A DNA stretch of 63,864 nucleotides, the filler included, from an uncultured Methanosarcinales archaeon (GTDB taxonomy: Archaea; Nanobdellota; Nanobdellia; Woesearchaeales; CAYSVS01), in the NCBI GenBank assembly GCA_964434475.1. It is 5 parts of 5 records of this genome, joined end to end, with 100 filler letters (N's around TTAATTAATTAA, not from the genome) between each part and the next. Parts side by side here need not be neighbours in the genome. Positions count along the whole stretch, not along the records: positions 51,687 to 63,864 come from CAYSVS010000040.1; 4 more parts are not named here. The stretch is one strand, 5' to 3'. Below the pieces are notes generated by a model. It was given only the letters and a program-made list of their open reading frames with translations, was not told the origin of the DNA and did not search any database. This document shows, piece by piece, positions 4,686 through 62,822 of this stretch; the stretch's first letter is position 1, and each line of letters starts with the position of its first letter. Both the position numbers and the translations under genes were made by a program.

Positions 4686-6377
4686 ATGGATATTGATAAG
4701 CTGGATTCAAGGTTTGATGAATTGGTGTCTTATATTGGTTATAGAAATAATGCACTGGATTTTCTTGAAAATAGATTAGGATTTAATGTAAATAACTTTT
4801 TTAGGCAAACAGAACGTGATACAAATGTCCCTGAAGAGGTTGTTAAGACATTAGATGATCTTGTTGTTGAAGAACAAGAAAGGGTAGATAAATTAAAGGA
4901 AATAGAAAAAGAGTATTCTATGCCTTATGGCTGTGTTTCTGAAACTTTTGAAATTGATGATGATACTATTGATCTACTTAAGAAATTTATGGGATATAGG
5001 ACTACAGAGGTAATTGTAGATAATTTAGATACAAGGAAAAATTTGGTTAGTTCTTGGATTCATAGAAAACAAAAGAATATGCATTACAAGTCTTTGGCTA
5101 TTATCTGCCAGTATATGGATAAAGATATAGATATTGATATAGAACGAAGATATGATGTAGGCTTGTTTAATAAGTTATTCTATAATTATTGTCATAATTC
5201 TGATGATAGTTTATCTCAAAATATAGATGAGTTGAAATCTGTTGCAAATATTAGTGACAGAAGCATAAGAAAGTTGATTAATGCTCATAGGGATGAAAGT
5301 GCTAACTATAAGACTGTATCTGAAGAATTGTGGGATTGGATTGTTGAAAAAAATAAGGACTTAGGTTTTGAAGACATAACTGATATTAAATTAGTTCATT
5401 ATTCGAACCATGGCAATAGCTTTCAAGAGATTGCAAATTTCAGAAAAAAGTATTATTTTTGCTCTGTATATGAGAATAAAAATTATAAAGAGATACTTTT
5501 AGAGATATTGGACAGGTCAGAAAACAAAAAACTTACTCTTGATGATGTCAAGCTGGGAAGAGTTACAGAGAAAGAGATGAACGCATTAGATGATATGGTG
5601 CATGATGTTATTGAAAAGAATAAAGTATCCTTGTTGAAGAGTTCTCATACCTATCTGACTATCCGGAAAGCAGAAAAAAAATCAGGTTTTTCTAATTCTT
5701 TTATCAGAAAAATTGTAAAAAAAGGGATATTGAAAACAAATTTTGACGAAGATTTTAATGAGGTTTTGCCTTCTTGTGAACTGTATAGATTAAACAGGAT
5801 AAAGGAAGCTGAGAAAACTTATATTAACAATATTATTGAGTTGATAAAAGAAAAACCATACTATTCAAAGAAAGATCTAGTGAGGTTAAGATTAGGCATA
5901 TCTTTAGCAAACGATAATGAACAAGTAAGTTCTGAAAGATTGATAAACTATCTTAACACAAAATATTATCCTTGTTTTGATTCGTATGTTGACTTGGTTG
6001 ATGATAATCATGTCAAGAAAAGATACAGCAGGTATTTAGAACAGTTTGAAATAAAAGCTGCATTGATTAATTATAGGAAAGGAGAAGGAACTATCTTATG
6101 TATAAAATATAAGAAAGGAACTCGATTTTGTGATTTAAGAAGATTCTTGTCAAAGCCGTTTATTGATTATCACTATGGTATTGCTGGAGAACATGCAGGA
6201 AGCGTAAAGAAGGATAAGGATAATTTGTATATAACAAGAGCAGTATTGGACAATTATTTCACTAAAAAGATAATAAAGAGATTCAAGAAATTCAATGTTG
6301 ATGTTCAAAAAGTCAAGCTTTCAAAAAAGTATGATGCGCACAACCAATCAATAGATTGGATAAAGGCGAATATGTGA
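4686..6377 (+). CDS. Hypothetical protein, possibly with multiple HTH-like segments
   Basis: 563-aa ORF; segments such as YLTIRKAEKKSGFSNSFIRKIVKKGIL and ELKSVANISDRSIRKLIN look HTH-like. Confidence 0.7.
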   Translation: MDIDKLDSRFDELVSYIGYRNNALDFLENRLGFNVNNFFRQTERDTNVPEEVVKTLDDLVVEEQERVDKLKEIEKEYSMPYGCVSETFEIDDDTIDLLKKFMGYRTTEVIVDNLDTRKNLVSSWIHRKQKNMHYKSLAIICQYMDKDIDIDIERRYDVGLFNKLFYNYCHNSDDSLSQNIDELKSVANISDRSIRKLINAHRDESANYKTVSEELWDWIVEKNKDLGFEDITDIKLVHYSNHGNSFQEIANFRKKYYFCSVYENKNYKEILLEILDRSENKKLTLDDVKLGRVTEKEMNALDDMVHDVIEKNKVSLLKSSHTYLTIRKAEKKSGFSNSFIRKIVKKGILKTNFDEDFNEVLPSCELYRLNRIKEAEKTYINNIIELIKEKPYYSKKDLVRLRLGISLANDNEQVSSERLINYLNTKYYPCFDSYVDLVDDNHVKKRYSRYLEQFEIKAALINYRKGEGTILCIKYKKGTRFCDLRRFLSKPFIDYHYGIAGEHAGSVKKDKDNLYITRAVLDNYFTKKIIKRFKKFNVDVQKVKLSKKYDAHNQSIDWIKANM

Positions 6378-6836
6378 TTATCTTTTATTTTTTGTTGGTT
6401 TCTTGCTTGGCTTTTTTTGATTTGATTTTTTTTTGTGATTGGTTTTTTTCTTTATCTGTTTTTTAGGTTTTGATTTTTTTGTTTTACGTATATCTTTTCT
6501 TAATTTCTTATTGTGTATATCATCAAGCATAAACAATATGCCAATAAACAAGCTTGTACCACTCATGAATGTTATTGCCGTGTAACTTACTCTTCCAAAG
6601 CCTATTAACAGATATAATAAAGCAAGTATGATGAATAATATTCCTCCTAATCTCTCTTTTCTCCAAGCGAGTACAGTTAATAATAGTATTATTGTTCCTG
6701 GTATCAAGGAAAGCAAGAAATTGTTTATGTTGAATCCTTCAGCAAATACCTCTAAGACGAACATATATAGGAATACTGTAAATAATATAGCTAATAATCT
6801 TGGTGTCCAGTATAAATAATTTATTTTTTTTCTCAT
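6378..6836 (-). CDS. Four-TM membrane protein with Lys-rich C-terminal tail
   Basis: WTPRLLAILF...LAWRKERLGGILF; basic low-complexity tail. Confidence 0.8.
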   Translation of the reverse strand: MRKKINYLYWTPRLLAILFTVFLYMFVLEVFAEGFNINNFLLSLIPGTIILLLTVLAWRKERLGGILFIILALLYLLIGFGRVSYTAITFMSGTSLFIGILFMLDDIHNKKLRKDIRKTKKSKPKKQIKKKTNHKKKSNQKKPSKKPTKNKR

Positions 6837-32903: not shown

Positions 32904-33755
32904 TTAATCTTTGTTTTTTGGGCTAAGTCCTTTCCATTCTTTTATTGCTCTGTCGTATCTTTCCATATTCCCTGTATCAAACCACTGCCCTGAAAAAGGA
33001 TATCCGAATAGTTTGCCTTGATTTGCCAATTCAGGAAAAACTGTTTTTTCAAGCATTGCAAAACCGTCAGGAATCATCTCTATTGTATTTGGCTCAAGAA
33101 TATAGAAACCTGAACTTATCAGTTTGCTTGGAGCTTCTTCTTTCTTAGGTTTTTCTACGAATTCAAGTATTTTGCTGCCGCTCAATCTTGCGACTCCATA
33201 GGCACTAGGATCCTCGACAGTAGTCAAAGCTATGGTTGCTTTTGCGTTTTCTCTTGTATGCTGCTCGTACATCTCGTCTAAGTCTATGTCTTTCAGTTCG
33301 TCGCCGTTGGTACAGAAAAAAGCTTCTGAAAGATGTTCTTTTGCAAGTTTTAGCGGTCCTCCTGTGCCTAATGGCTCGTTTTCAATTATATAAGTGATGT
33401 TGACGCCAAACTTGCTCCCATCTCCGTAATATTGCATTATCTTTTCGCGCATATGGCCTACTGCCATGATTATATCTTTAATTCCATACTTTTTAAAAAG
33501 GTCGAAAAGATGTTCTGTTAATGTTTTACCGTGTACTGGAATCAATGCTTTTGGTATCTCATAAGTTATGGGTCTTAACCTTGTGCCTTTGCCGCCACAA
33601 AGTATCACTGCTTTTTTTGGAAAATTATTTCTTAATGATTTTTTCAGCAGTAATTCAAAAGCATGACTTCTGTTTTTTATCTTATGTCCATCTATTGCTT
33701 TGTCTATTTTTTTTAGTAAATCTGAATCTATAGTTACAGTTAATCTTTCTTTCAT
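32904..33755 (-). CDS. Sugar-1-phosphate nucleotidyltransferase fused to N-terminal ribbon-helix-helix domain
   Basis: MKERLTVTIDSDLLKKID...NRSHAFE (RHH), then GGKGTRLRPIT..PK, EPLGTGG, FVEKP, WFDTG. Confidence 0.9.
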   Translation of the reverse strand: MKERLTVTIDSDLLKKIDKAIDGHKIKNRSHAFELLLKKSLRNNFPKKAVILCGGKGTRLRPITYEIPKALIPVHGKTLTEHLFDLFKKYGIKDIIMAVGHMREKIMQYYGDGSKFGVNITYIIENEPLGTGGPLKLAKEHLSEAFFCTNGDELKDIDLDEMYEQHTRENAKATIALTTVEDPSAYGVARLSGSKILEFVEKPKKEEAPSKLISSGFYILEPNTIEMIPDGFAMLEKTVFPELANQGKLFGYPFSGQWFDTGNMERYDRAIKEWKGLSPKNKD

Positions 33756-33979
33756 AGAAAAAGTATGATAAAGTAATATTATTTAAACTTTTTTATTATG
33801 GGGTTTTTAATGTGGCGTAAATAATTTTAATACTGTTTTTTAATCTCGTATTAATTTTAGGTTATCTGAATAAGTTTATTCTTTAATGTTTTGTTATTCC
33901 TTTTTTAATATAAACCTATTTTAAAATTACCATTAAATAACAATATTTATATAGTTTGTTATGTTTTGCTATTTTTACA

Positions 33980-51586: not shown

Positions 51587-51686
51587 NNNNNNNNNNNNNN
51601 NNNNNNNNNNNNNNNNNNNNNNNNNNNNNNTTAATTAATTAANNNNNNNNNNNNNNNNNNNNNNNNNNNNNNNNNNNNNNNNNNNN
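51587..51686. other. Assembly spacer
   Basis: N run with TTAATTAATTAA. Confidence 0.99.
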
Positions 51687-51859
51687 CTATAACTTACAGG
51701 AGATGCTAAAGCAACAAGGATTGAATCCACTGTGGGGGAGGAAGTTGTGCCTCCGGCAGTTCCACCACCTCCACCACTTCCACCACCGCATCCAGTGATG
51801 TTGAGCAGGAAAGCTGCAAGGACAAATATTGATAAAAATATGTTTTTCAAAGTTGACAT
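51687..51859 (-). CDS. Lipoprotein, 5' fragment truncated by contig end
   Basis: NITGC lipobox-like then GGGSGGGGG linker; GGAG RBS. Confidence 0.8.
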
Positions 51860-51879: not shown

Positions 51880-53922
51880 TTAGTCTTGTTCTAAAGCATA
51901 TAAGATGGAGCGATTGATACCATCATAATAGCTTATATGCGCTTTATCTGTCGAATCTATGGCAAGAGAACAGGAAAACCCTACATTCCCTGAACTGTCG
52001 ATTGTTTCTGTTTGCCAGAATCCACTGTAACTGACATATTTCAGATTACCATTATCAAAAAAAACAATATGTGGATTATTGTTAGAATCAATTGCAATAG
52101 AAGTATTACCTGCGGAGGCATCATCCAGTGTAATAACTTGCCACCCCCACACTCCTGAATACTCAGCATATTTCAAGCAAGAATTTGTTGTATCGTAGTA
52201 ACTGACAAACAGATTATCAGAAGAATCTATTGCTAACGAATTGTACTTCCCTACATCACCCCAGTTATCAATTTCTTCTGTGTGCCAGGAACCGTCATTC
52301 CATGCGTGATTCAATGTGTTGCCTGCGCCATCATAATAACTAATATGCGGATTTCCTGCAGAATCAAGCACAAGAGAGGAATATTTTCCAAAGTCGCCAG
52401 CAACAACTGTCTCGATATTCCATGCGCCATTTTTTTCAGCGAATCCAAGATTGTTCCCAACAAGTGCGTAGTAGCTGAGATGAGGATTGTCTGCATTGTC
52501 AAGTGCTAGAGAGACATGCCGATCAATAATATTCACCGCAACTGTTTCAGTTTGCCAAGAGCCATTATTGTATGTATACATCAATTGTGAGGGGGAGAAA
52601 TTATTGAAACTTATACATGGATTCCCAGCAGAATTAATGGCTAAGGATTTATATTCTACAAATCCTGCTGAATAAACGGTTTCAGTCTGCCAGGAAGCAT
52701 TATACGATGCATACTTTAATGGGCTGTCATTTCCTCCAGAATAAGCAATATGTGGATTATCAGAAGAGTCAACGGCTATCGAGCAATCTCCCCATCCTGA
52801 AGCAGCAAAGGTATCTATCGTTGTTACATTCCAATCGCTCTCGCTTGCTCCCCAACTAGGATCATTGGATGTACCTCTATAAATTTTATTCATATAAAAA
52901 TCCTGAATTTCCAGTGCAGTATAATTGTAGACCTCACCTGCAGGAAGAGTGAAATCGACAGTGTTTGTTGCCTGCGAAATTCCTTTTGCAAGGTAATCAT
53001 TGTTCTGACCATGAACTACTATTTCATAGTTGTTGCCGCCGTTTATCGTTGAAGTATCATCATTCCAGGTTACTGTTATTGTTTGACCGTTCTGGCTGAC
53101 ATTGGCACTTGGTGAAGAGAGTTCTGCTTCAATGGTTCTTCTGTATCCCATAGTCTCACCATTTGAAAAAGTAATATACCAATCATAGGTTCCTGTTTCT
53201 AATTTGCCTGGCATATACTCACTCCGCCAGTTCCCTGAATAATTTTCTGTGAAAGTCAACCCGAGTGATACATTATCTTTTTTCAAATCAATACTATTGA
53301 TAGGGTAATCTGGATCATCATCAACGGCAAATATTGTATGGGGTATTTCTGTAAAATAATCTGTTGCCGCTGCCCAAAGCCATTTTACTTCTTCATCTCT
53401 TACAACCTGCCAACTATTGCGATCATTTTGGAAAAGCACTGGAAATTTATAATGATAAGTTTCAGCAATATCTGTATAGGCAGTGCCGTCTTTATAATAA
53501 AAATCGGCGTTACTTCTTGATCTTGTCCAGGTCACTGTTGTGTCGATATCACAAACACCTACTGTATCCGTTGCATAATATACATCTTCTGCTGACATTG
53601 TTAGGGATGTGATTGTTGGAATAATGCTATTCGAACATACAGTTTCTCCGATAACGTAAGCAGAAAAACCATTCACTATTGCTGTTCTTGAAACAGCGTT
53701 GAACTTTGCATTTGAATGAAGTATAGATGAGAATTGTGTCGTGTTCTTATTAATGATTGCCTGACGCAGGTTTTCAACAGCTTCAGGGATTGTGCTGCTC
53801 GTATAAGAAGCAGCTGCACCACCTCCACCGCCGCCGCCTCCACCGCCGCAAGCGGTTAATAGCGTACAGAGAACTCCAAAAGTAACAACTGAGGCAAAGC
53901 AATAGATTACTCGTCTTTTCAT
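51880..53922 (-). CDS. Large lipoprotein with C-terminal beta-propeller-like repeats
   Basis: LTAC lipobox, poly-Gly linker; seven repeats of SLAxDSxxNPHISYY...LKYA...W.TETV; AGGAGG RBS. Confidence 0.9.
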   Translation of the reverse strand: MKRRVIYCFASVVTFGVLCTLLTACGGGGGGGGGGAAASYTSSTIPEAVENLRQAIINKNTTQFSSILHSNAKFNAVSRTAIVNGFSAYVIGETVCSNSIIPTITSLTMSAEDVYYATDTVGVCDIDTTVTWTRSRSNADFYYKDGTAYTDIAETYHYKFPVLFQNDRNSWQVVRDEEVKWLWAAATDYFTEIPHTIFAVDDDPDYPINSIDLKKDNVSLGLTFTENYSGNWRSEYMPGKLETGTYDWYITFSNGETMGYRRTIEAELSSPSANVSQNGQTITVTWNDDTSTINGGNNYEIVVHGQNNDYLAKGISQATNTVDFTLPAGEVYNYTALEIQDFYMNKIYRGTSNDPSWGASESDWNVTTIDTFAASGWGDCSIAVDSSDNPHIAYSGGNDSPLKYASYNASWQTETVYSAGFVEYKSLAINSAGNPCISFNNFSPSQLMYTYNNGSWQTETVAVNIIDRHVSLALDNADNPHLSYYALVGNNLGFAEKNGAWNIETVVAGDFGKYSSLVLDSAGNPHISYYDGAGNTLNHAWNDGSWHTEEIDNWGDVGKYNSLAIDSSDNLFVSYYDTTNSCLKYAEYSGVWGWQVITLDDASAGNTSIAIDSNNNPHIVFFDNGNLKYVSYSGFWQTETIDSSGNVGFSCSLAIDSTDKAHISYYDGINRSILYALEQD

Positions 53923-53956
53923 ACACCCTCCTTTCCTATGACAATAGTTTTCTGAC

Positions 53957-54166
53957 TAGGAGAATGTTATCCGAATTTAGGAGAAATGTGAAGAATAAAT
54001 ATTTAAACTTTTTGCACCGGTTTCCTCTACCAACGACCAAGAATCAGTTTTTTTCCAAAAATTAATCCTTTTCCTAGTTTTTTATTAACTTTGATGAAAG
54101 AAACTGCTAAAATATCTTTTTGTTGACGGAAATATCTATCCTCAGTCTTTTCAGCATTCTCCTAAA
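53957..54166. promoter_or_regulatory. Inverted-repeat-flanked segment containing a leftward BRE/TATA promoter
   Basis: TAGGAGAATG (53957) and TTTAGGAGAA (53976) vs inverted CATTCTCCTAAA (54155-54166); minus-strand AAAAAGTTTAAATA at ~54000-54013. Confidence 0.5.
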
Positions 54167-54216
54167 ATGCGAAAAGAATATTCTTTACTAAAAGGGAGGC
54201 GCAATGTTTTTAAAAA

Positions 54217-54855
54217 ATGAGCAGCCACCATGAGCGTGAGTATTACAGTCTTGAAAAGGTAAGGTGTCTGAATATCGCTGAAATAAAAAGACTAAGGAAA
54301 GTGCTAAAGAGAAGACTGTATGCTAGAACTCAGTATTATGGACAATCCGCCATTAAGCAGTGGTTTTTGGTCGAATTGGGACTTTCCACTGGTTTAAGAA
54401 TCTCCGAGATCTGCAATCTAAGGATGAAGCATATCTTTTTGTATTCTGTAAGGCCGTTCGTCTTCGTAGAACAGGGAAAGGGTGGAAAATCAAGGCGAGT
54501 TGAAATCGATTTTGAGTTCAGAGAAACCGTGAAATCCTACATGATTATGAAAAAAGAGATCAATGAGTCTGTTAAGCTTGATGATTATCTTTTGCACAGT
54601 TCAAGATCTAATGGTAGATACTCTACAAGAGGATTGCAATTCATGTTTGCCAAATGTTTAGAAATTGCCAAGATTTCACAAGAGTTTTCTGTTCATTGCA
54701 TGAGGCACACTTTTGCATTGGCTGTCTACAAAGCCACCAAGTTCAATATTAGGTATGTTCAAAAGCAATTGGGGCATTCTTCTTTAAGAGTTACTGAAAT
54801 CTATCTACAAGCCTTGATGTCAGAATTACAAAAGCCGTTGAAGAGGTTGTATTGA
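54217..54855 (+). CDS. Tyrosine recombinase, catalytic domain only (FimB/FimE-sized)
   Basis: TGLRISE (R), GKGGK (K), HCMRHT (HxxR), LGHSS (H), TEIY (Y); 212 aa. Confidence 0.93.
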   Translation: MSSHHEREYYSLEKVRCLNIAEIKRLRKVLKRRLYARTQYYGQSAIKQWFLVELGLSTGLRISEICNLRMKHIFLYSVRPFVFVEQGKGGKSRRVEIDFEFRETVKSYMIMKKEINESVKLDDYLLHSSRSNGRYSTRGLQFMFAKCLEIAKISQEFSVHCMRHTFALAVYKATKFNIRYVQKQLGHSSLRVTEIYLQALMSELQKPLKRLY

Positions 54856-54896
54856 GTTTCGAAACATTTATATAGAATCTTGACAAAATTACATCT

Positions 54897-55247
54897 ATGA
54901 TCGAACGATTCGAAGCTATAGAAAGAGGCGGTAAAAAATATCTGATAGAGAAGCATCCGAGAGTTCTAAGAGCACCTATTTGGTATTTATATGAAAAAAG
55001 CGCAAGACTAAAGATTCACTGCCTTATTCCCCAAGTTGGAAGTTCATATGTCCTTTTCAAGGCTAAATGGCTAAAAGGGAAAGATGTTAAGGAACAGATT
55101 TCAAACCTATTAAAACATAAGGAATTTGAAGTTAATGAAGACAATTTCAAAGGCAGGTTTATCATAGCATCAAATTCCAACCATCCAAGTAATGCCAGCC
55201 ATAAGTTTATGTCCGGCCTGGTCGTTCAAATATCTAAGTTAGAGTAG
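54897..55247 (+). CDS. Hypothetical protein
   Basis: 116-aa ORF with TTTATATA promoter upstream. Confidence 0.6.
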   Translation: MIERFEAIERGGKKYLIEKHPRVLRAPIWYLYEKSARLKIHCLIPQVGSSYVLFKAKWLKGKDVKEQISNLLKHKEFEVNEDNFKGRFIIASNSNHPSNASHKFMSGLVVQISKLE

Positions 55248-55280
55248 AGATTGTTATCCCTTTCAGTTACAATCAATTCA

Positions 55281-56012
55281 ATGACTTCTAAGACGCATAG
55301 CTTTATTGCCAAACTTGCTCTAGCCTGCCTGGAACCAGAAGAACAGGAAATATTATTCCCAAGATGGGCTGGCATTGATTCAGGTGCCACCCTTTCAGAT
55401 GATTTCAGGATCATGTGGGACTTTGACCTTTCTGATTCGGAAAAGCGAAAACTTGTGCACCGTTTCTATGTGGATAGTGATAATCTTAAGGATAAAGGAT
55501 GTGTACCGAGGATTGTGATGCACACTGAAGGGGTCATTGATTTCATCAAGGTTTATGAGCCTGAAGATGAAGGCTACAGCGAGATTGAGTTTCTTGAGAA
55601 CATGGGCATGTTTCTGGGAATTATAAGCCACCATATTGCAGATATCTGCACTCCACTTCATGTCGGAAAAAAGCTCAACCACAAAGCAGCTAGTTTCAAA
55701 TCAAGAAAATCTTTTCATGACAGGATTGAGAAAGATATTGAGAAGTATTCTTCTCAAGCTCAGCTCCACTTAACTCCATGTGTTGAGATCCCTGTCACTG
55801 AAGCCCATTTTGAAGGCATTGCCATCCAGACTTACCAGAAGTATTTCCTTACGATTGAAGACATCTATCGCAATAACAATAACTCTCTCATCTATGAAAT
55901 GTCTTCAGATCTGATAAACACAGCAGTAATCCAAACAAGAGATACATGGCATACTGTTCTACAAGTCACCAAAATGACTGAGAATAAATGGTCTTATCAG
56001 CCTTTGCTATGA
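55281..56012 (+). CDS. Zn-dependent phospholipase C / S1-P1 nuclease-like protein
   Basis: N-terminal TH, HHIADICTPLH, FHDRIE zinc-ligand pattern. Confidence 0.75.
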   Translation: MTSKTHSFIAKLALACLEPEEQEILFPRWAGIDSGATLSDDFRIMWDFDLSDSEKRKLVHRFYVDSDNLKDKGCVPRIVMHTEGVIDFIKVYEPEDEGYSEIEFLENMGMFLGIISHHIADICTPLHVGKKLNHKAASFKSRKSFHDRIEKDIEKYSSQAQLHLTPCVEIPVTEAHFEGIAIQTYQKYFLTIEDIYRNNNNSLIYEMSSDLINTAVIQTRDTWHTVLQVTKMTENKWSYQPLL

Positions 56013-56016
56013 TGCC

Positions 56017-56343
56017 TTATATAGTTTCAATTACCAATTTGTTTCTTTCAGGATGGATATAAACTTCAGTATCCTTTTTCAATTTCAGATATTCGGATAT
56101 CTTCTTAGGAATCCTTACTGCAAGAGAATTGCCTGATTTTGATATCTTTGTCTTTTTCTCAAGCCCAAAAAGTCCTTTCTTTTTGGCAATATCCTCAATC
56201 TGTTTAACAACCGCTTCGTCCATAAAGGATTCACCGCAATGGTTACATACATCTGCCGGAAACTCACCGATTAACTCTCCGAAAACATACTCTTTGACTT
56301 TCTTCCTAACAAGTTTCCCTTTGTTACATATTGGACATTTCAT
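56017..56343 (-). CDS. Antitoxin: YgiT/MqsA-type zinc finger plus AbrB/MazE DNA-binding domain
   Basis: MKCPIC...VCNHCGE; KISKSGNSLAVRIPK; GGTGA RBS. Confidence 0.88.
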   Translation of the reverse strand: MKCPICNKGKLVRKKVKEYVFGELIGEFPADVCNHCGESFMDEAVVKQIEDIAKKKGLFGLEKKTKISKSGNSLAVRIPKKISEYLKLKKDTEVYIHPERNKLVIETI

Positions 56344-56348
56344 GATTC

Positions 56349-56549
56349 TCACCTTGGTTTGACAGTTATGACATAATAGACAGCTCCAATTTTTCTGCAA
56401 ACTACGCAAAAATGACCATAATAACAGAGCAGCTTATTGGGCTTCTGGATTGCTTTTGCTCCAAAAGCAATTGCTCTCTTCACTTCTTCAACACTTATGC
56501 CTCTCAAAATCATCCGATCTCTCGCGTGTTTGCTGAACTTCAATAACAT
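56349..56549 (-). CDS. DUF4258-like putative toxin (RelE/BrnT-type RNase fold)
   Basis: FSKHARDRMILRGISVEEV...YVITV. Confidence 0.82.
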   Translation of the reverse strand: MLLKFSKHARDRMILRGISVEEVKRAIAFGAKAIQKPNKLLCYYGHFCVVCRKIGAVYYVITVKPR

Positions 56550-56558
56550 TGTGCTTAC

Positions 56559-56570
56559 CTGTAATTACAG
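56559..56570. promoter_or_regulatory. Palindromic operator candidate of the TA operon
   Basis: CTGTAATTACAG perfect palindrome between the minus-strand TATA (~56584) and the toxin ATG. Confidence 0.55.
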
Positions 56571-56725
56571 TAAGGACAATGATTATTTAAATCTTGCGGT
56601 TGATTCTTCGATAAATTCTGAATCATGCAAAAATCTCAGTTATTACAACTTTTAAGCAAAAAATCAAAAAGTTTATATACTTATTTATCTTTTTGATAAC
56701 TGCGCATGTTACTAGGTTATAGATG

Positions 56726-56738
56726 CTCGGCCGGCGCA
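56726..56738 (+). other. tRNA 3'-end-like remnant (candidate att site)
   Basis: GC-rich CTCGGCCGGCGCA in AT-rich DNA at the island edge; resembles archaeal tRNA-Gly 3' ends. Confidence 0.4.
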
Positions 56739-56983
56739 TTTCAGTTTTAATGAAATAGCTAAGAGACTCGAATAATGAATAAAAACAAAAAAATGAAAGA
56801 GGATCAACATAACTAAATACTCACTAAATCTTGAAGCTAGGTTGATAAAAGCAAAGCTGTATGATTTTAAGACAAGAACAGCTATCAATAGAGCAGATAT
56901 TTATATGAAAAATCTATTAAATAGGCATAATCAAATATCTGAATGTATGCTATAACAAGATAAAAGATTATTTCAGAAATTAA

Positions 56984-57511
56984 CTACTTTTCAAACAATG
57001 TTTTGGTCCTAGTAGGCATCATCTGTTTCATCTGTGCAAATTGCTCTTCATCAACTGTCAATGGGCTTACGTTATATTCAAATTGCTCCTTTATTGCAGC
57101 ACATATCTGTTTGATTTCAGTCAGATCAAAGTTATTACCTATCAAAATTATATTTGCCCTATCTTTTTCTTCTTTTCCTTGCAAGAGTATCTTTTGCAAT
57201 CCTCGCAAATCTTTTGCTTTTGTTACAAAAACCTGCAAAGCCTGCTTCTGCTTTTTGATCAATTGACCTAAAAATCTAGTTTTCTCATTATCTCCAAGCC
57301 TATATACTTTAAATTTAGCAACCTTAATTTCATTTACTAATCCTAGATCAACCAACCTTCTGACAATCCTAAAAGTTGTTGCTAAAGATACTCTGCTTTT
57401 CTTGGACAACTCTCTTATATAAAACTCCTTTTTATCAAACTCATAGAATTTTCTTAATACAGCTAAAAGCTTGCTGTCAAACAACTGCTCAACTATATCA
57501 AGATTTTCCAT
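56984..57511 (-). CDS. Winged-helix regulator with degenerate nucleotidyltransferase-like C-domain
   Basis: EFYIRELSKKSRVSLATTFRIV; KILLQG...ANIILIG. Confidence 0.75.
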   Translation of the reverse strand: MENLDIVEQLFDSKLLAVLRKFYEFDKKEFYIRELSKKSRVSLATTFRIVRRLVDLGLVNEIKVAKFKVYRLGDNEKTRFLGQLIKKQKQALQVFVTKAKDLRGLQKILLQGKEEKDRANIILIGNNFDLTEIKQICAAIKEQFEYNVSPLTVDEEQFAQMKQMMPTRTKTLFEK

Positions 57512-59385: not shown

Positions 59386-59964
59386 TCATTTAGTTCTTCT
59401 TTTTGTGTTAGATGTTCTTGAAGGCCTTAACTTTTCAGCACCTTTGCCTTTGTTTCTCAAACCTCTGCTTTTTTTACCAGCAGAAGTCAACCCTCTAGCA
59501 GCTCTTCTTTTTTTTTTAGTGATCCATTTGATATTCCTATCTTTCTTTATCACAGGATGAGCTTTATCTACAAGAATAATCTCGAACCAATGATATTTAC
59601 CATCAGAAGCTACCCAATAACTATTAAGAACTTCACAATTAGGATATTTCCTATTGCATCTTTCTTCAGCAATATTTTGATAACTTTTGTCAAGATCTAC
59701 CCTTTTCTTTCTTCTCTTTGGCCTTCTTTTCCTAAAAGACTCCTTAGTCTTTACATGTCCGCCTCTAAGAATCTTCTGTCTTACTATCAGATAGCCTTGC
59801 TTTGCCTTATATCCTAAGCTTCTTGCCCTATCAACTCTAGTAGGATATACTAACCTAACAGTAACTGGCTCTTTTCTCCATCTAATCAGCCTTTGTCTCC
59901 AGATGTCCTGAAGATTTTCTCGTGGTTTTTTCCACATCTTTCTTACATATTTGTAAAATCCCAT
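59386..59964 (-). CDS. rpl15e: 50S ribosomal protein eL15
   Basis: PTRVDRARSLGYKAKQG, VLNSYWV, RGLTSAGKKSRGL. Confidence 0.98.
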   Translation of the reverse strand: MGFYKYVRKMWKKPRENLQDIWRQRLIRWRKEPVTVRLVYPTRVDRARSLGYKAKQGYLIVRQKILRGGHVKTKESFRKRRPKRRKKRVDLDKSYQNIAEERCNRKYPNCEVLNSYWVASDGKYHWFEIILVDKAHPVIKKDRNIKWITKKKRRAARGLTSAGKKSRGLRNKGKGAEKLRPSRTSNTKRRTK

Positions 59965-61376: not shown

Positions 61377-62822
61377 GTGATTATATTGCAAGAGATGGAA
61401 ATTAAAAAGGATAAAAGCGAACTTATCCAGAAATTGATCGAAAATGCAGGCATACTCAAAGAGTATGATATAAACATCCCTCCTTCTTTAAATCTAAATA
61501 AATTACTAAGTCAAGACACAGAAACATTAGAAAATCAACTTCAAAAAATAAGCAAAGAACTTGCTATAAGACGAAACAAGAAAAAAACAGAAGAAGAAAC
61601 ACAAGAAAACATAATAAAATTATACAATTCATTAAACAATTATCCTACTTTTGACGAAAAAATGGAAAAGATAATTGAAAATGTTCCCATTGTATTTAAA
61701 TCAGAATACAAATTTTATATGAAAACAGACGATGAAGAGTTTGTGCTAAAATCAACAAACAAAGAAAAATTAAAGGACAGGATAAAAGGAACAGAAGATC
61801 CTTTAAAATTAAAAAAAGACAGCTTGACTGCAAGGATATTTTTGGACAGAGTGCCTAAATATATACAAGACATAGAAGAGCTAGGAATAAAACATAAGCA
61901 AGAAAGATATAGCCACAAATCAGCACTATATATACCTTTGATAAACGGTAAAGTCCACGGAGGCTTTACATTAGATATTAATCCCGAATTCTATTCTCCG
62001 AAAATCTTAACAAGATTTTATCAGCTCATCATGAGTGCATTGAAGAATGCAGAAGACTACGAGATGGTAAGAAAAGACAAGGATATAGACGGAATGACCA
62101 AGCTTTATGTTCATAAATATTTTAAGAATGAATTAAAAAAGCAAGTGAAATACGCCATGAGAAATAATAAAGACTTAAGCATATTCATGAGCGATATAGA
62201 CCATTTCAAGGAATTCAACGATACTTATGGACATCAAGCAGGAGATGAAGTACTGCAGAAGGTTGCAGAAATAGGCATTAACTTAGAAAAAAGGACAAAT
62301 GATTGTCTTGCAAGATATGGCGGAGAAGAGTTCATATGTTCATTAACAGGATCAGATTCAGAGTTTGCGCATAAGATTGCAGAGAAGTACAGAAAAAACA
62401 TAGAAGAAACAGAAATAATATACGAAAGCAAAAGATTAAATGTGACCGCAAGTTTTGGATGTACAAGCCTACATAATAATAAAGAAACAACACTTCTTTT
62501 TGGAAATAATGAAGAAAGGAAAACAGTCAATAATTATTTGATAAATGACACAGTAGAAACAACACCTGAATTATTTGAAAAATATGGAGGAAGAGACAAA
62601 CTCGAACTTTATCTTTCAAACATAAAAAATGCTTTCCTTGATTATAAGAACAGAAAAAGAGAACTCCAAAGGATAAATAATGACGATTTTTTTCAATCTA
62701 TAAACTCGAAAGAAAAAAGGCATCTATGGGAAGATATAGGGATAAATATGATGATCAAAGCTGCAGACAGTGCATTATATAGAGCAAAACACAGCGGAAG
62801 AAATCAAGTCATACAAAATTAA
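61377..62822 (+). CDS. GAF-GGDEF diguanylate cyclase with large insertion
   Basis: DGMTKLY, SDIDHFKEFNDTYGHQAGD, RTND I-site, ARYGGEEF, TASFG, AADSALYRAKHSGRN; GAF-like KSALYIPL. Confidence 0.93.
   Translation: MIILQEMEIKKDKSELIQKLIENAGILKEYDINIPPSLNLNKLLSQDTETLENQLQKISKELAIRRNKKKTEEETQENIIKLYNSLNNYPTFDEKMEKIIENVPIVFKSEYKFYMKTDDEEFVLKSTNKEKLKDRIKGTEDPLKLKKDSLTARIFLDRVPKYIQDIEELGIKHKQERYSHKSALYIPLINGKVHGGFTLDINPEFYSPKILTRFYQLIMSALKNAEDYEMVRKDKDIDGMTKLYVHKYFKNELKKQVKYAMRNNKDLSIFMSDIDHFKEFNDTYGHQAGDEVLQKVAEIGINLEKRTNDCLARYGGEEFICSLTGSDSEFAHKIAEKYRKNIEETEIIYESKRLNVTASFGCTSLHNNKETTLLFGNNEERKTVNNYLINDTVETTPELFEKYGGRDKLELYLSNIKNAFLDYKNRKRELQRINNDDFFQSINSKEKRHLWEDIGINMMIKAADSALYRAKHSGRNQVIQN

Follow-up and report, generated by a model that had tools for sequence, protein, structure and literature searches.

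The DNA analyzed here, which we call the window, is a stretch of 63,864 nucleotides (nt) from an uncultured archaeon (assembly GCA_964434475.1; Woesearchaeales in its GTDB lineage), made of five parts joined end to end with filler N's; at about 54 kb, a gene for a tyrosine recombinase lies beside a short non-coding segment that may be an invertible promoter. The recombinase open reading frame (ORF) occupies 54217-54855 on the plus strand. It diverges, as the initial annotation had described, from a gene on the minus strand (51880-53922) that encodes a secreted lipoprotein of 680 residues, and a 294-bp intergenic region separates the two. The lipoprotein carries the lipobox LLTAC followed by a poly-Gly linker, its C-terminal half is rich in repeats, and it has no match in Pfam, NCBIfam or PDB sequences. 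We regard this gene as the candidate regulated output of the switch proposed below.

The recombinase is 212 residues long. Pfam Phage_integrase (PF00589) matches residues 32-201 (3.2e-26, 92.6 bits against a cut-off of 27.1), and R61, K88, H160, R163, H187 and Y196 do not vary across 24 aligned sequences. In an AlphaFold model (mean confidence, pLDDT, 85.7), the sole helix before the catalytic fold spans residues 20-36; the best structural matches returned by Foldseek are the catalytic domains of XerA (5hxy, the top match, TM-score 0.70) and XerH (5jk0). The XerA equivalog model NF040815 gives 107.2 bits against a cut-off of 220 and aligns only to its positions 94-261 of 263. Sequence and modelled fold thus agree that this is a short, Xer-like enzyme made of the catalytic domain only, without the core-binding N-terminal domain. 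The initial annotation had already noted the complete R-K-HxxR-H-Y set and the missing N-terminal domain, on which Pfam, the alignment and the model concur. It had also likened the enzyme to FimB and FimE, tyrosine recombinases of about 200 residues that lack the usual N-terminal domain and flip the fimS promoter. This kinship does not hold: the two FimB/FimE-type models of NCBIfam, NF007370 ('tyrosine-type DNA invertase') and NF007371, score 37.1 bits against a cut-off of 221 and 28.7 bits against a cut-off of 222, and the best matches are of Xer type. The shared size of about 200 residues is a likeness of form only.

Two putative recombination sites, each with a 6-bp core between two 15-bp arms, lie in the intergenic region. 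The distal site D, ttattcttcacattt CTCCTA aattcggataacatt, is at 53963-53998 on the minus strand with its core at 53978-53983, and the proximal site P, agtcttttcagcatt CTCCTA aaatgcgaaaagaat, is at 54144-54179 on the plus strand with its core at 54159-54164 and its arms forming a dyad. The two cores are identical, asymmetric and in inverted orientation, so that they delimit a core-to-core unit of 187 bp (53978-54164). The inner 145 bp of this putative invertible unit (53999-54143) are non-coding. T-tracts at 54048-54054, 54069-54072 and 54078-54083 and an A-tract at 54057-54061 cluster around the midpoint of the unit, 54071, at spacings of roughly multiples of 10 bp, and may give the DNA an intrinsic curvature that aids formation of a short loop.

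The repeats on which the initial annotation built are all present, and the site model changes what they mean. Of the local inverted alignments in the intergenic region, the best is the 14/17 match between 53976-53992 and 54150-54166, whose left half is the center of the real distal site. The perfect 10/10 match between 53957-53966 and 54155-54164 is really a partial third copy of the core (TAGGAGAATG, plus strand) that lies 21 bp from the D core and over the D outer arm; it is absent from the top matches of the site model, and could be an accessory site, an alternative site or a product of chance. The 14-bp palindrome AAAGAATATTCTTT (54173-54186), also pointed out before, consists of the end of the P outer arm plus its mirror copy, and is not conserved in either of the two close relatives, L081 and L001, described below.

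Because a plain inverted-repeat test of the region was not significant, we turned to weight-matrix models, building a site matrix from the recombinase-proximal stretches of the window, L081 and L001. When all 126,578 positions of the window were scanned, P itself scored 43.2, D 20.2 and the reverse strand of P 18.0; unrelated positions reached at most 10.5. D is the best match other than P to itself, and the sole other site in 63.8 kb; the model finds no third site anywhere in the window. A scan of the 12-kb contig that carries the locus gave the same ranking. The score of the reverse strand of P shows that P has dyad symmetry. P also rises above threshold (11.1 against a 99.99th percentile of 8.0) with a matrix drawn from the bacterial clade of relatives.

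A candidate promoter lies inside the unit. The BRE/TATA-like element (B recognition element followed by a TATA box) AAAAAGTTTAAATA, at 54000-54013 on the minus strand, sits at the D-proximal end of the segment and is aimed at the lipoprotein gene, as the initial annotation had proposed. At -85, it is the only TATA-like motif within 90 nt 5' of the lipoprotein ATG. The 14-mer has two exact copies in the window, and the other (33780-33793, minus strand) lies at -32 of a gene at 32904-33755, the usual place for a promoter in this organism. More broadly, 15 of 52 window genes have a TATA-like motif starting at -30 to -34 from the start codon, a pattern that suggests leaderless archaeal promoters, and the promoters of this organism look strongly leaderless; a minority of window genes have a Shine-Dalgarno-like GGTG leader with the TATA at -39 to -62.

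With the TATA-to-start distance of 31 nt implied by the leaderless genes, we predict that lipoprotein transcripts would start at about 53976, just beyond the D core, and would carry a 54-nt leader that includes the Shine-Dalgarno-like GGAGGGTG found 5' of the ATG. From this arrangement we infer that AAAAAGTTTAAATA is the lipoprotein promoter. Inversion about the cores maps position x to 108142 - x and, carried out in silico, places the BRE/TATA at 54129-54142 on the plus strand, some 31 nt before the recombinase-side flank, with a predicted start at about 54166; the initial annotation had likewise expected the OFF state to point the promoter at the recombinase. The recombinase may in addition have its own leaderless-type promoter, abutting P: a weak TATA-like motif, TTTACTAA (54184-54191, plus strand; 6/8 match to TTTAWATA), lies at -33 of its ATG. 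Between this motif and the gene, a GGGAGG precedes an upstream ORF (uORF) of nine codons (MFLKNEQPP-stop; 54204-54233, plus strand) that overlaps the recombinase start in another frame.

Taking these features together, we read the locus, with somewhat better than even confidence, as a site-specific DNA inversion switch made up of the recombinase, D and P, with the internal BRE/TATA driving the lipoprotein gene. The recombinase would bind the four 15-bp arms of D and P, and strand exchange within the CTCCTA cores would flip the 187-bp unit. In the assembled orientation, the BRE/TATA would fire across D into the lipoprotein gene, which would be ON. In the inverted orientation, transcripts starting near 54166 would cross the GGGAGG, the nine-codon uORF and the recombinase gene, leaving the lipoprotein OFF. 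The OFF state would then raise recombinase expression and so favor return to ON, where little recombinase would be made. Inversion here, control of the lipoprotein and this ON-biased feedback are all deduced from the layout of the DNA; as shown below, an invertible switch is well supported for the family to which the recombinase belongs, and is probable for the window locus.

The closest relatives of the window recombinase are found at two loci, L081 (61% identical) and L001 (59%), and at all three a conserved stretch, corresponding to site P, precedes the recombinase start by 62-73 nt. At L081, the best other match to the site model is an inverted site 125 bp upstream, with a score of 23.9 against a background of 8.7. 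Both cores there read CTCCCA and are inverted, enclosing 109-125 bp depending on the site frame, and the window and L081 agree at positions in the outer arm of D (TTCgGATAAc and TTCtGATAAg). Lipobox proteins adjoin the module at three of three loci: divergent and beyond D in the window and L081, where the proteins at the same place are not homologous, and as two genes downstream of the recombinase in L001. The L001 genome contains a gene for L20, and L15e was not found in it; this genome is bacterial, so the window clade crosses domains. On its sequences, the clade seems to have kept the sites and been re-wired around them.

The uORF has counterparts at both loci. L001 carries a similar one (MSLKNRKTP-stop) at the same place (155-184), and L081 has an ATG 16 nt upstream of the recombinase start (1996 onward) in the same frame relation. 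At all three loci the uORF follows a Shine-Dalgarno-like sequence, is one base out of the recombinase frame and runs over an A-run (TTAAAAAAT). The recombinase frame of L001 has ATA where the others have ATG, with the N-terminal HHEREYY still conserved in frame. The overlap is possibly a sign of translational coupling, of a rare start codon or of a +1 slip on the A-run.

Beyond this clade, pattern scans yielded 272 relatives from species-representative genomes and a further 326 from metagenome contigs, of which the best 80 of each were kept; with the window contig, these 160 loci make 161 sequences, 134 of them extending 420 bp or more upstream of the recombinase. Named relatives are mostly Planctomycetota (Phycisphaerae, Sedimentisphaerales, Pirellulales), along with Bipolaricaulota, Thermotogota and others. 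At 46 of the 134 loci, the 140 nt beside the gene have an inverted match upstream at z > 3; a direct match at z > 3 occurs in 14. The matches are 36-bp dyads with the consensus AAAAGGTTCAGATTT-N6-AAATCTGAACCTTTT, located at about -53 to -19, with the inverted copy upstream.

The cores of these dyads behave as crossover regions should. In a set of 45 non-redundant loci chosen for having repeats (the 46 repeat-bearing loci, the window and L081, dereplicated), the 6-bp core is identical between both sites in 44; in L028, the exception, one site is poorly detected. A shared core is rare between loci (36 of 1980 pairs), and the 45 loci have 34 different cores. The information at positions 17-21 is just 0.15-0.5 bit over the whole set, and within a locus the identity at these positions is 98%. 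Given that this set was preselected for repeats, we repeated the test with the core positions neutralized in the matrix. The best proximal site on the plus strand and the best upstream site on the minus strand share their core in 73 of 134 loci, and in 69 of these 73 the two both score beyond the 99.99th percentile of background. A same-core pair in direct orientation occurs in 0 of 134. Across the 73 loci, the segment between the sites measures 194 bp at the median (10-90% range, 169-200). The 61 loci lacking a pair also lack an inverted repeat (median z -0.3, none > 3). For strand exchange, a tyrosine recombinase needs an asymmetric core that matches between the two inverted sites of a locus and leaves it free to vary between loci; operators and RNA hairpins need no such match, and the co-variation therefore points to a crossover region.

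The site pairs also follow the phylogeny. On a quick maximum-likelihood tree of 133 of the 134 rows (one was removed by a length and stop-codon filter), the presence of a pair needs 4 changes compared with 44 in shuffles, and a clade of 29 Bipolaricaulota and Thermotogota rows has no site pairs at all. The sites come as inverted pairs beside the gene with locus-specific cores, unlike the single dif-like site that Xer recombinases use for chromosome dimer resolution. We also rejected a small protein encoded within the segment, such as a DNA-binding domain or an excisionase: 46 inner segments of the family show no conserved ORF, frame or strand, and a 33-residue ORF in the window is unrelated to a 63-residue ORF in L081. 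A structured leader RNA fared no better, as Rfam gave no match in six loci at the gathering score or in window positions 51900-57000 at E-values up to 1. The inner segment of the window is a singleton among the 73, with no detectable similarity to the others.

To look for natural inversions, we compared the 73 inner segments all against all and aligned pairs in opposite orientation over a span reaching 250 bp beyond D on one side and 250 bp beyond P on the other. L150 and L160 are collinear on the left flank and the outer part of D (89% over 73 nt) and on the recombinase side (77% over 265 nt), and the 74 nt beside P in L150 correspond, reversed, to the 74 nt beside D in L160 (86%). Likewise, L016 matches L085 and L005 in the forward direction on the recombinase side, with 79 nt of its segment reversed (73%; 26 nt at 96% against L005); L085 and L005 are collinear with each other throughout (488 nt). 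In addition, the sites of L016 each combine one 'CAG-type' and one 'CGC-type' half-site, where L085 pairs like with like, and mixed half-sites of this kind are what a crossover in the core would produce. Finally, L088 and L113 match forward on the recombinase side with 126 nt reversed (71%). Opposite orientations between collinear flanks in three lineages indicate that inversion of the segment occurs naturally in this family and that one state is strongly favored.

Several observations weigh against the reading of the window locus as a switch. All the natural inversions come from a distant, Planctomycetota-centered clade with 33-40% identity, and on the quick tree the window and L081 form a long separate branch with pairless clades in between. 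Among related inner-segment pairs, 65 of 69 have the same orientation and 4 of 69 the opposite, and the assembled site is a better palindrome than the one obtained by in-silico inversion in 48 of 73 loci for D and 53 of 73 for P; both biases imply that one state dominates strongly. (Terminator switching by a hairpin in D, which the palindrome counts might suggest, was rejected, since these counts are not decisive and the idea is not applicable to the window, where D folds at -3.4 kcal/mol.) In the window clade, just two loci have both sites: the L001 contig ends 104 nt before P, and the other contigs of that genome, in which the recombinase is single-copy, did not yield the missing half. By plain Smith-Waterman score, the inverted repeat of the 294-bp window region is reached by 12 of 200 dinucleotide shuffles, and that of L081 by 26 of 200, so neither is significant alone. 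The D arms are degenerate, scoring 5.8 with the bacterial-clade matrix, below its threshold.

Only one orientation has been seen at the window locus, which lends no support to inversion and is uninformative on a minority state. We searched Logan contigs from three runs of one study. A single contig, with a depth of 9.48, from a microbial-mat run that is probably the source of the assembly, spans 53300-54900 in the reference orientation without joints, and the other two runs matched just the poly-Gly codon repeat at 53817-53849. At this depth, contig building would eliminate a minority orientation, and the contig consequently decides nothing.

The regulatory logic of relatives counts against our reading as well, and favors the alternative that we take most seriously while judging it unlikely: that the segment inverts, with the recombinase transcript and its downstream genes as the output of an invertible 5' leader, and that the lipoprotein is an unregulated neighbor. 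In 46 of 71 loci of the main bacterial clade, a sigma-70-like promoter that fires toward the recombinase has its end 3-17 nt before D (for example, L100 1827-1854 and L021 4650-4678), compared with 3 of 71 for the opposite strand and 4.8% among random windows. A same-strand ORF follows within 130 bp 3' of the recombinase in 32 of 46 loci, and upstream neighbors face either way. An outside promoter and a downstream ORF suggest that, in the main clade, recombinase and cargo form one operon whose 5' leader is the invertible segment. The lipoprotein gene of L081 has a palindromic TATA (TTTATAAA, 1777-1784) immediately beyond D, suitably spaced from the gene, and may therefore not depend on the segment; the downstream position of the L001 lipoproteins also fits a leader. 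With promoters outside the segment in both L081 and the main clade, the regulatory logic is evidently not conserved.

The window itself is arranged differently. It has no TATA-like motif left of D able to fire rightwards, and the sole consensus promoter of the intergenic region is inside the segment and faces the lipoprotein gene. Two same-strand ORFs do lie 3' of the recombinase (54897-56012, plus strand; 116 and 253 residues, the latter with a weak match to Zn-dependent phospholipase C). The first has its own TATA at -30, so these ORFs need not share the recombinase transcript.

Marginally less likely still is that D and P are operators, or the remains of a decayed switch, through which the recombinase represses divergent promoters without inverting anything any more. 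The arms of D match those of P at only 7/15 positions (inner) and 9/15 (outer), the possible promoter of the recombinase abuts P, the candidate promoter of the lipoprotein gene abuts D, and a single orientation is seen in the contigs. Against this, operators need no identical, asymmetric 6-bp center, and the centers are identical in the window and identical, with a different sequence, in L081. Moreover, all the catalytic residues are intact and the outer-arm positions of D are conserved between these two loci.

We consider it very improbable that the sites serve a mobile island in excision, integration or dimer resolution. The stretch at 52-56 kb is richer in G+C (0.375-0.395) than the rest of the window (0.28-0.36), the closest relatives occur in a bacterium (L001) and an archaeon, which implies horizontal transfer, and the module of D, segment, P and recombinase is conserved among paralogues with differing flanks. 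A third site is missing from the window, however, the same-core pairs are inverted in every one of the 73 loci, and excision is impossible between inverted sites 145 bp apart. Viral and plasmid records show no enrichment of the family either; the best matches there are generic integrases with at most 32-38% identity, and these distant hits led us to reject a phage or plasmid origin. That the repeats are chance matches in AT-rich intergenic DNA, as the shuffles of the window region might suggest, is effectively refuted by the uniqueness of D under the site model and by the same architecture at the same position in L081 and 71 further loci.

That host-associated bacteria vary their surface proteins through recombinase-driven phase variation is well established; to our knowledge, archaea and environmental phyla have hardly been explored for it. 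DPANN archaea rely on surface proteins and spend their lives attached to other cells. In Clostridioides difficile, RecV is encoded elsewhere in the genome and serves many switches, including cwpV and flgB. The main-clade modules resemble cwpV and flgB in having the promoter outside the segment and an invertible 5' leader of about 190 bp, and differ in that each carries its own recombinase directly after the leader; the window, for its part, seems to use an internal promoter. In Bacteroides, Weinacht and co-workers are said to have described, in 2004, invertible promoters with adjacent Tsr tyrosine recombinases. Like these, our family has several copies per genome, a recombinase with a segment of about 200 bp, and differing surface cargo; judged by description rather than by sequence comparison, it is set apart by its Planctomycetota and DPANN hosts and by a shorter, Xer-like recombinase.

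The sites resemble those of XerA/dif, XerH/difH and Cre/loxP in having two inverted arms around a short asymmetric crossover region, and the Xer enzymes are the closest in sequence and fold. Unlike XerA/dif, the recombinase lacks a core-binding N-terminal domain, the sites form an inverted pair beside the gene, and the cores vary by locus. In comparison with fimS of E. coli, given as 314 bp in PMC9993118, the window likewise has a short recombinase beside a short segment, a candidate internal promoter that would read across one repeat to a surface gene, and recombinase expression that would depend on orientation. It differs in the protein family, in having one recombinase rather than two, in its archaeal BRE/TATA and in its DPANN host; its sites are full 15-6-15 dyads with a 6-bp core, whereas fimS has 9-bp repeats with flanking half-sites. 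The fimS-like switch of the initial annotation therefore survives as an inverted pair of recombinase sites beside a short recombinase whose family inverts its segment, with a candidate promoter inside, and stripped of its FimB/FimE kinship.

A broader claim can be put forward only tentatively, at rather less than even confidence: that this is the first promoter-inversion phase-variation switch in a DPANN (Woesearchaeota-like) archaeon, turning a BRE/TATA promoter from a surface lipoprotein gene to its own recombinase gene and back, and that it represents an undescribed, cross-domain family of modules, re-wired to archaeal transcription and using private, orthogonal cores. Such a family would combine a catalytic-domain-only, Xer-like recombinase with two inverted 15-6-15 sites, would be abundant and present in multiple copies in Planctomycetota, and would move between bacteria and archaea. 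Chanin et al (PMC10028968) used long reads to find 12 putative invertons in 42 archaeal isolates of Euryarchaeota and Crenarchaeota, and call archaeal invertons 'minimally investigated'. Those inversions are also flanked by inverted repeats, and the sections of that paper drawn on here name no DPANN case and no recombinase family. Such a group goes unmentioned in the portions of a tyrosine-recombinase classification (PMC8138268) that we used, and full-text searches on invertons, phase variation and tyrosine recombinases turned up no paper on the family, although absence there is not proof.

If our reading is correct, DPANN archaea use stochastic ON/OFF switching of a lipoprotein. The family would also offer a mutually orthogonal set of DNA switches, consisting of an enzyme of about 210 residues, 36-bp sites and dozens of natural 6-bp cores. 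It would likewise provide a test of how 15-bp arms are recognized by a tyrosine recombinase that has no core-binding domain.

Several assemblies carry more than one module. Four copies (L060, L064, L071 and L078) occur in one Sedimentisphaerales assembly, and L048 and L070 in another, with different downstream cargo at each copy. L060 and L078 share the core CAACAG, and L064 and L071 share CAATAG, which makes cross-recombination between modules possible. Of 44 downstream cargo proteins scanned, 24 have no Pfam family and 6 have PEP-CTERM signals (4 of them at or above the cut-off); the others include response regulators, a histidine kinase, and NYN, C39 and collagen-like proteins. The distal site of L021 has the look of a hairpin with a T-run after it, and L019 encodes a second short tyrosine recombinase (5972-6589; 205 residues, Phage_integrase 1.7e-26) 363 bp past the first. 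Three loci come from metagenome-assembled genomes labelled Aenigmatarchaeota (L016), Bathyarchaeum (L036) and archaeon (L054); their recombinases nest within those of Planctomycetota at short distances. The flanks of L016, which include a RelA/SpoT-like gene, are not diagnostic. These are probably mis-binned bacterial contigs, and we have not counted them as archaeal carriers.

The archaeal setting of the window locus is indicated by a gene for ribosomal protein L15e (59386-59964) on the same 12,178-nt contig as the recombinase, whose nearest named relatives are from Woesearchaeota and Nanoarchaeota (61-68% identity); Cbf5-type and Tyw1-type genes lie elsewhere in the window. The contig also encodes a GGDEF diguanylate cyclase domain protein (61377-62822; 1.2e-36), which is unusual for an archaeon. 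Together with the G+C-richer stretch at 52-56 kb, it hints at bacterial imports. At 56017-56549 on the minus strand, a gene for a DUF4258 protein (66 residues) overlaps one for a protein with zinc-ribbon/MqsA-like and MazE/AbrB-like parts (130 residues), likely a toxin-antitoxin pair to judge from these domains. Directly downstream of the lipoprotein gene, a second lipobox gene (51635-51859; NITGC, then a Gly-rich linker) enters the N stretch at about 51.7 kb, which leaves the assembly of the lipoprotein 'operon' incomplete. One Logan contig (8,067 nt) possibly spans this gap.

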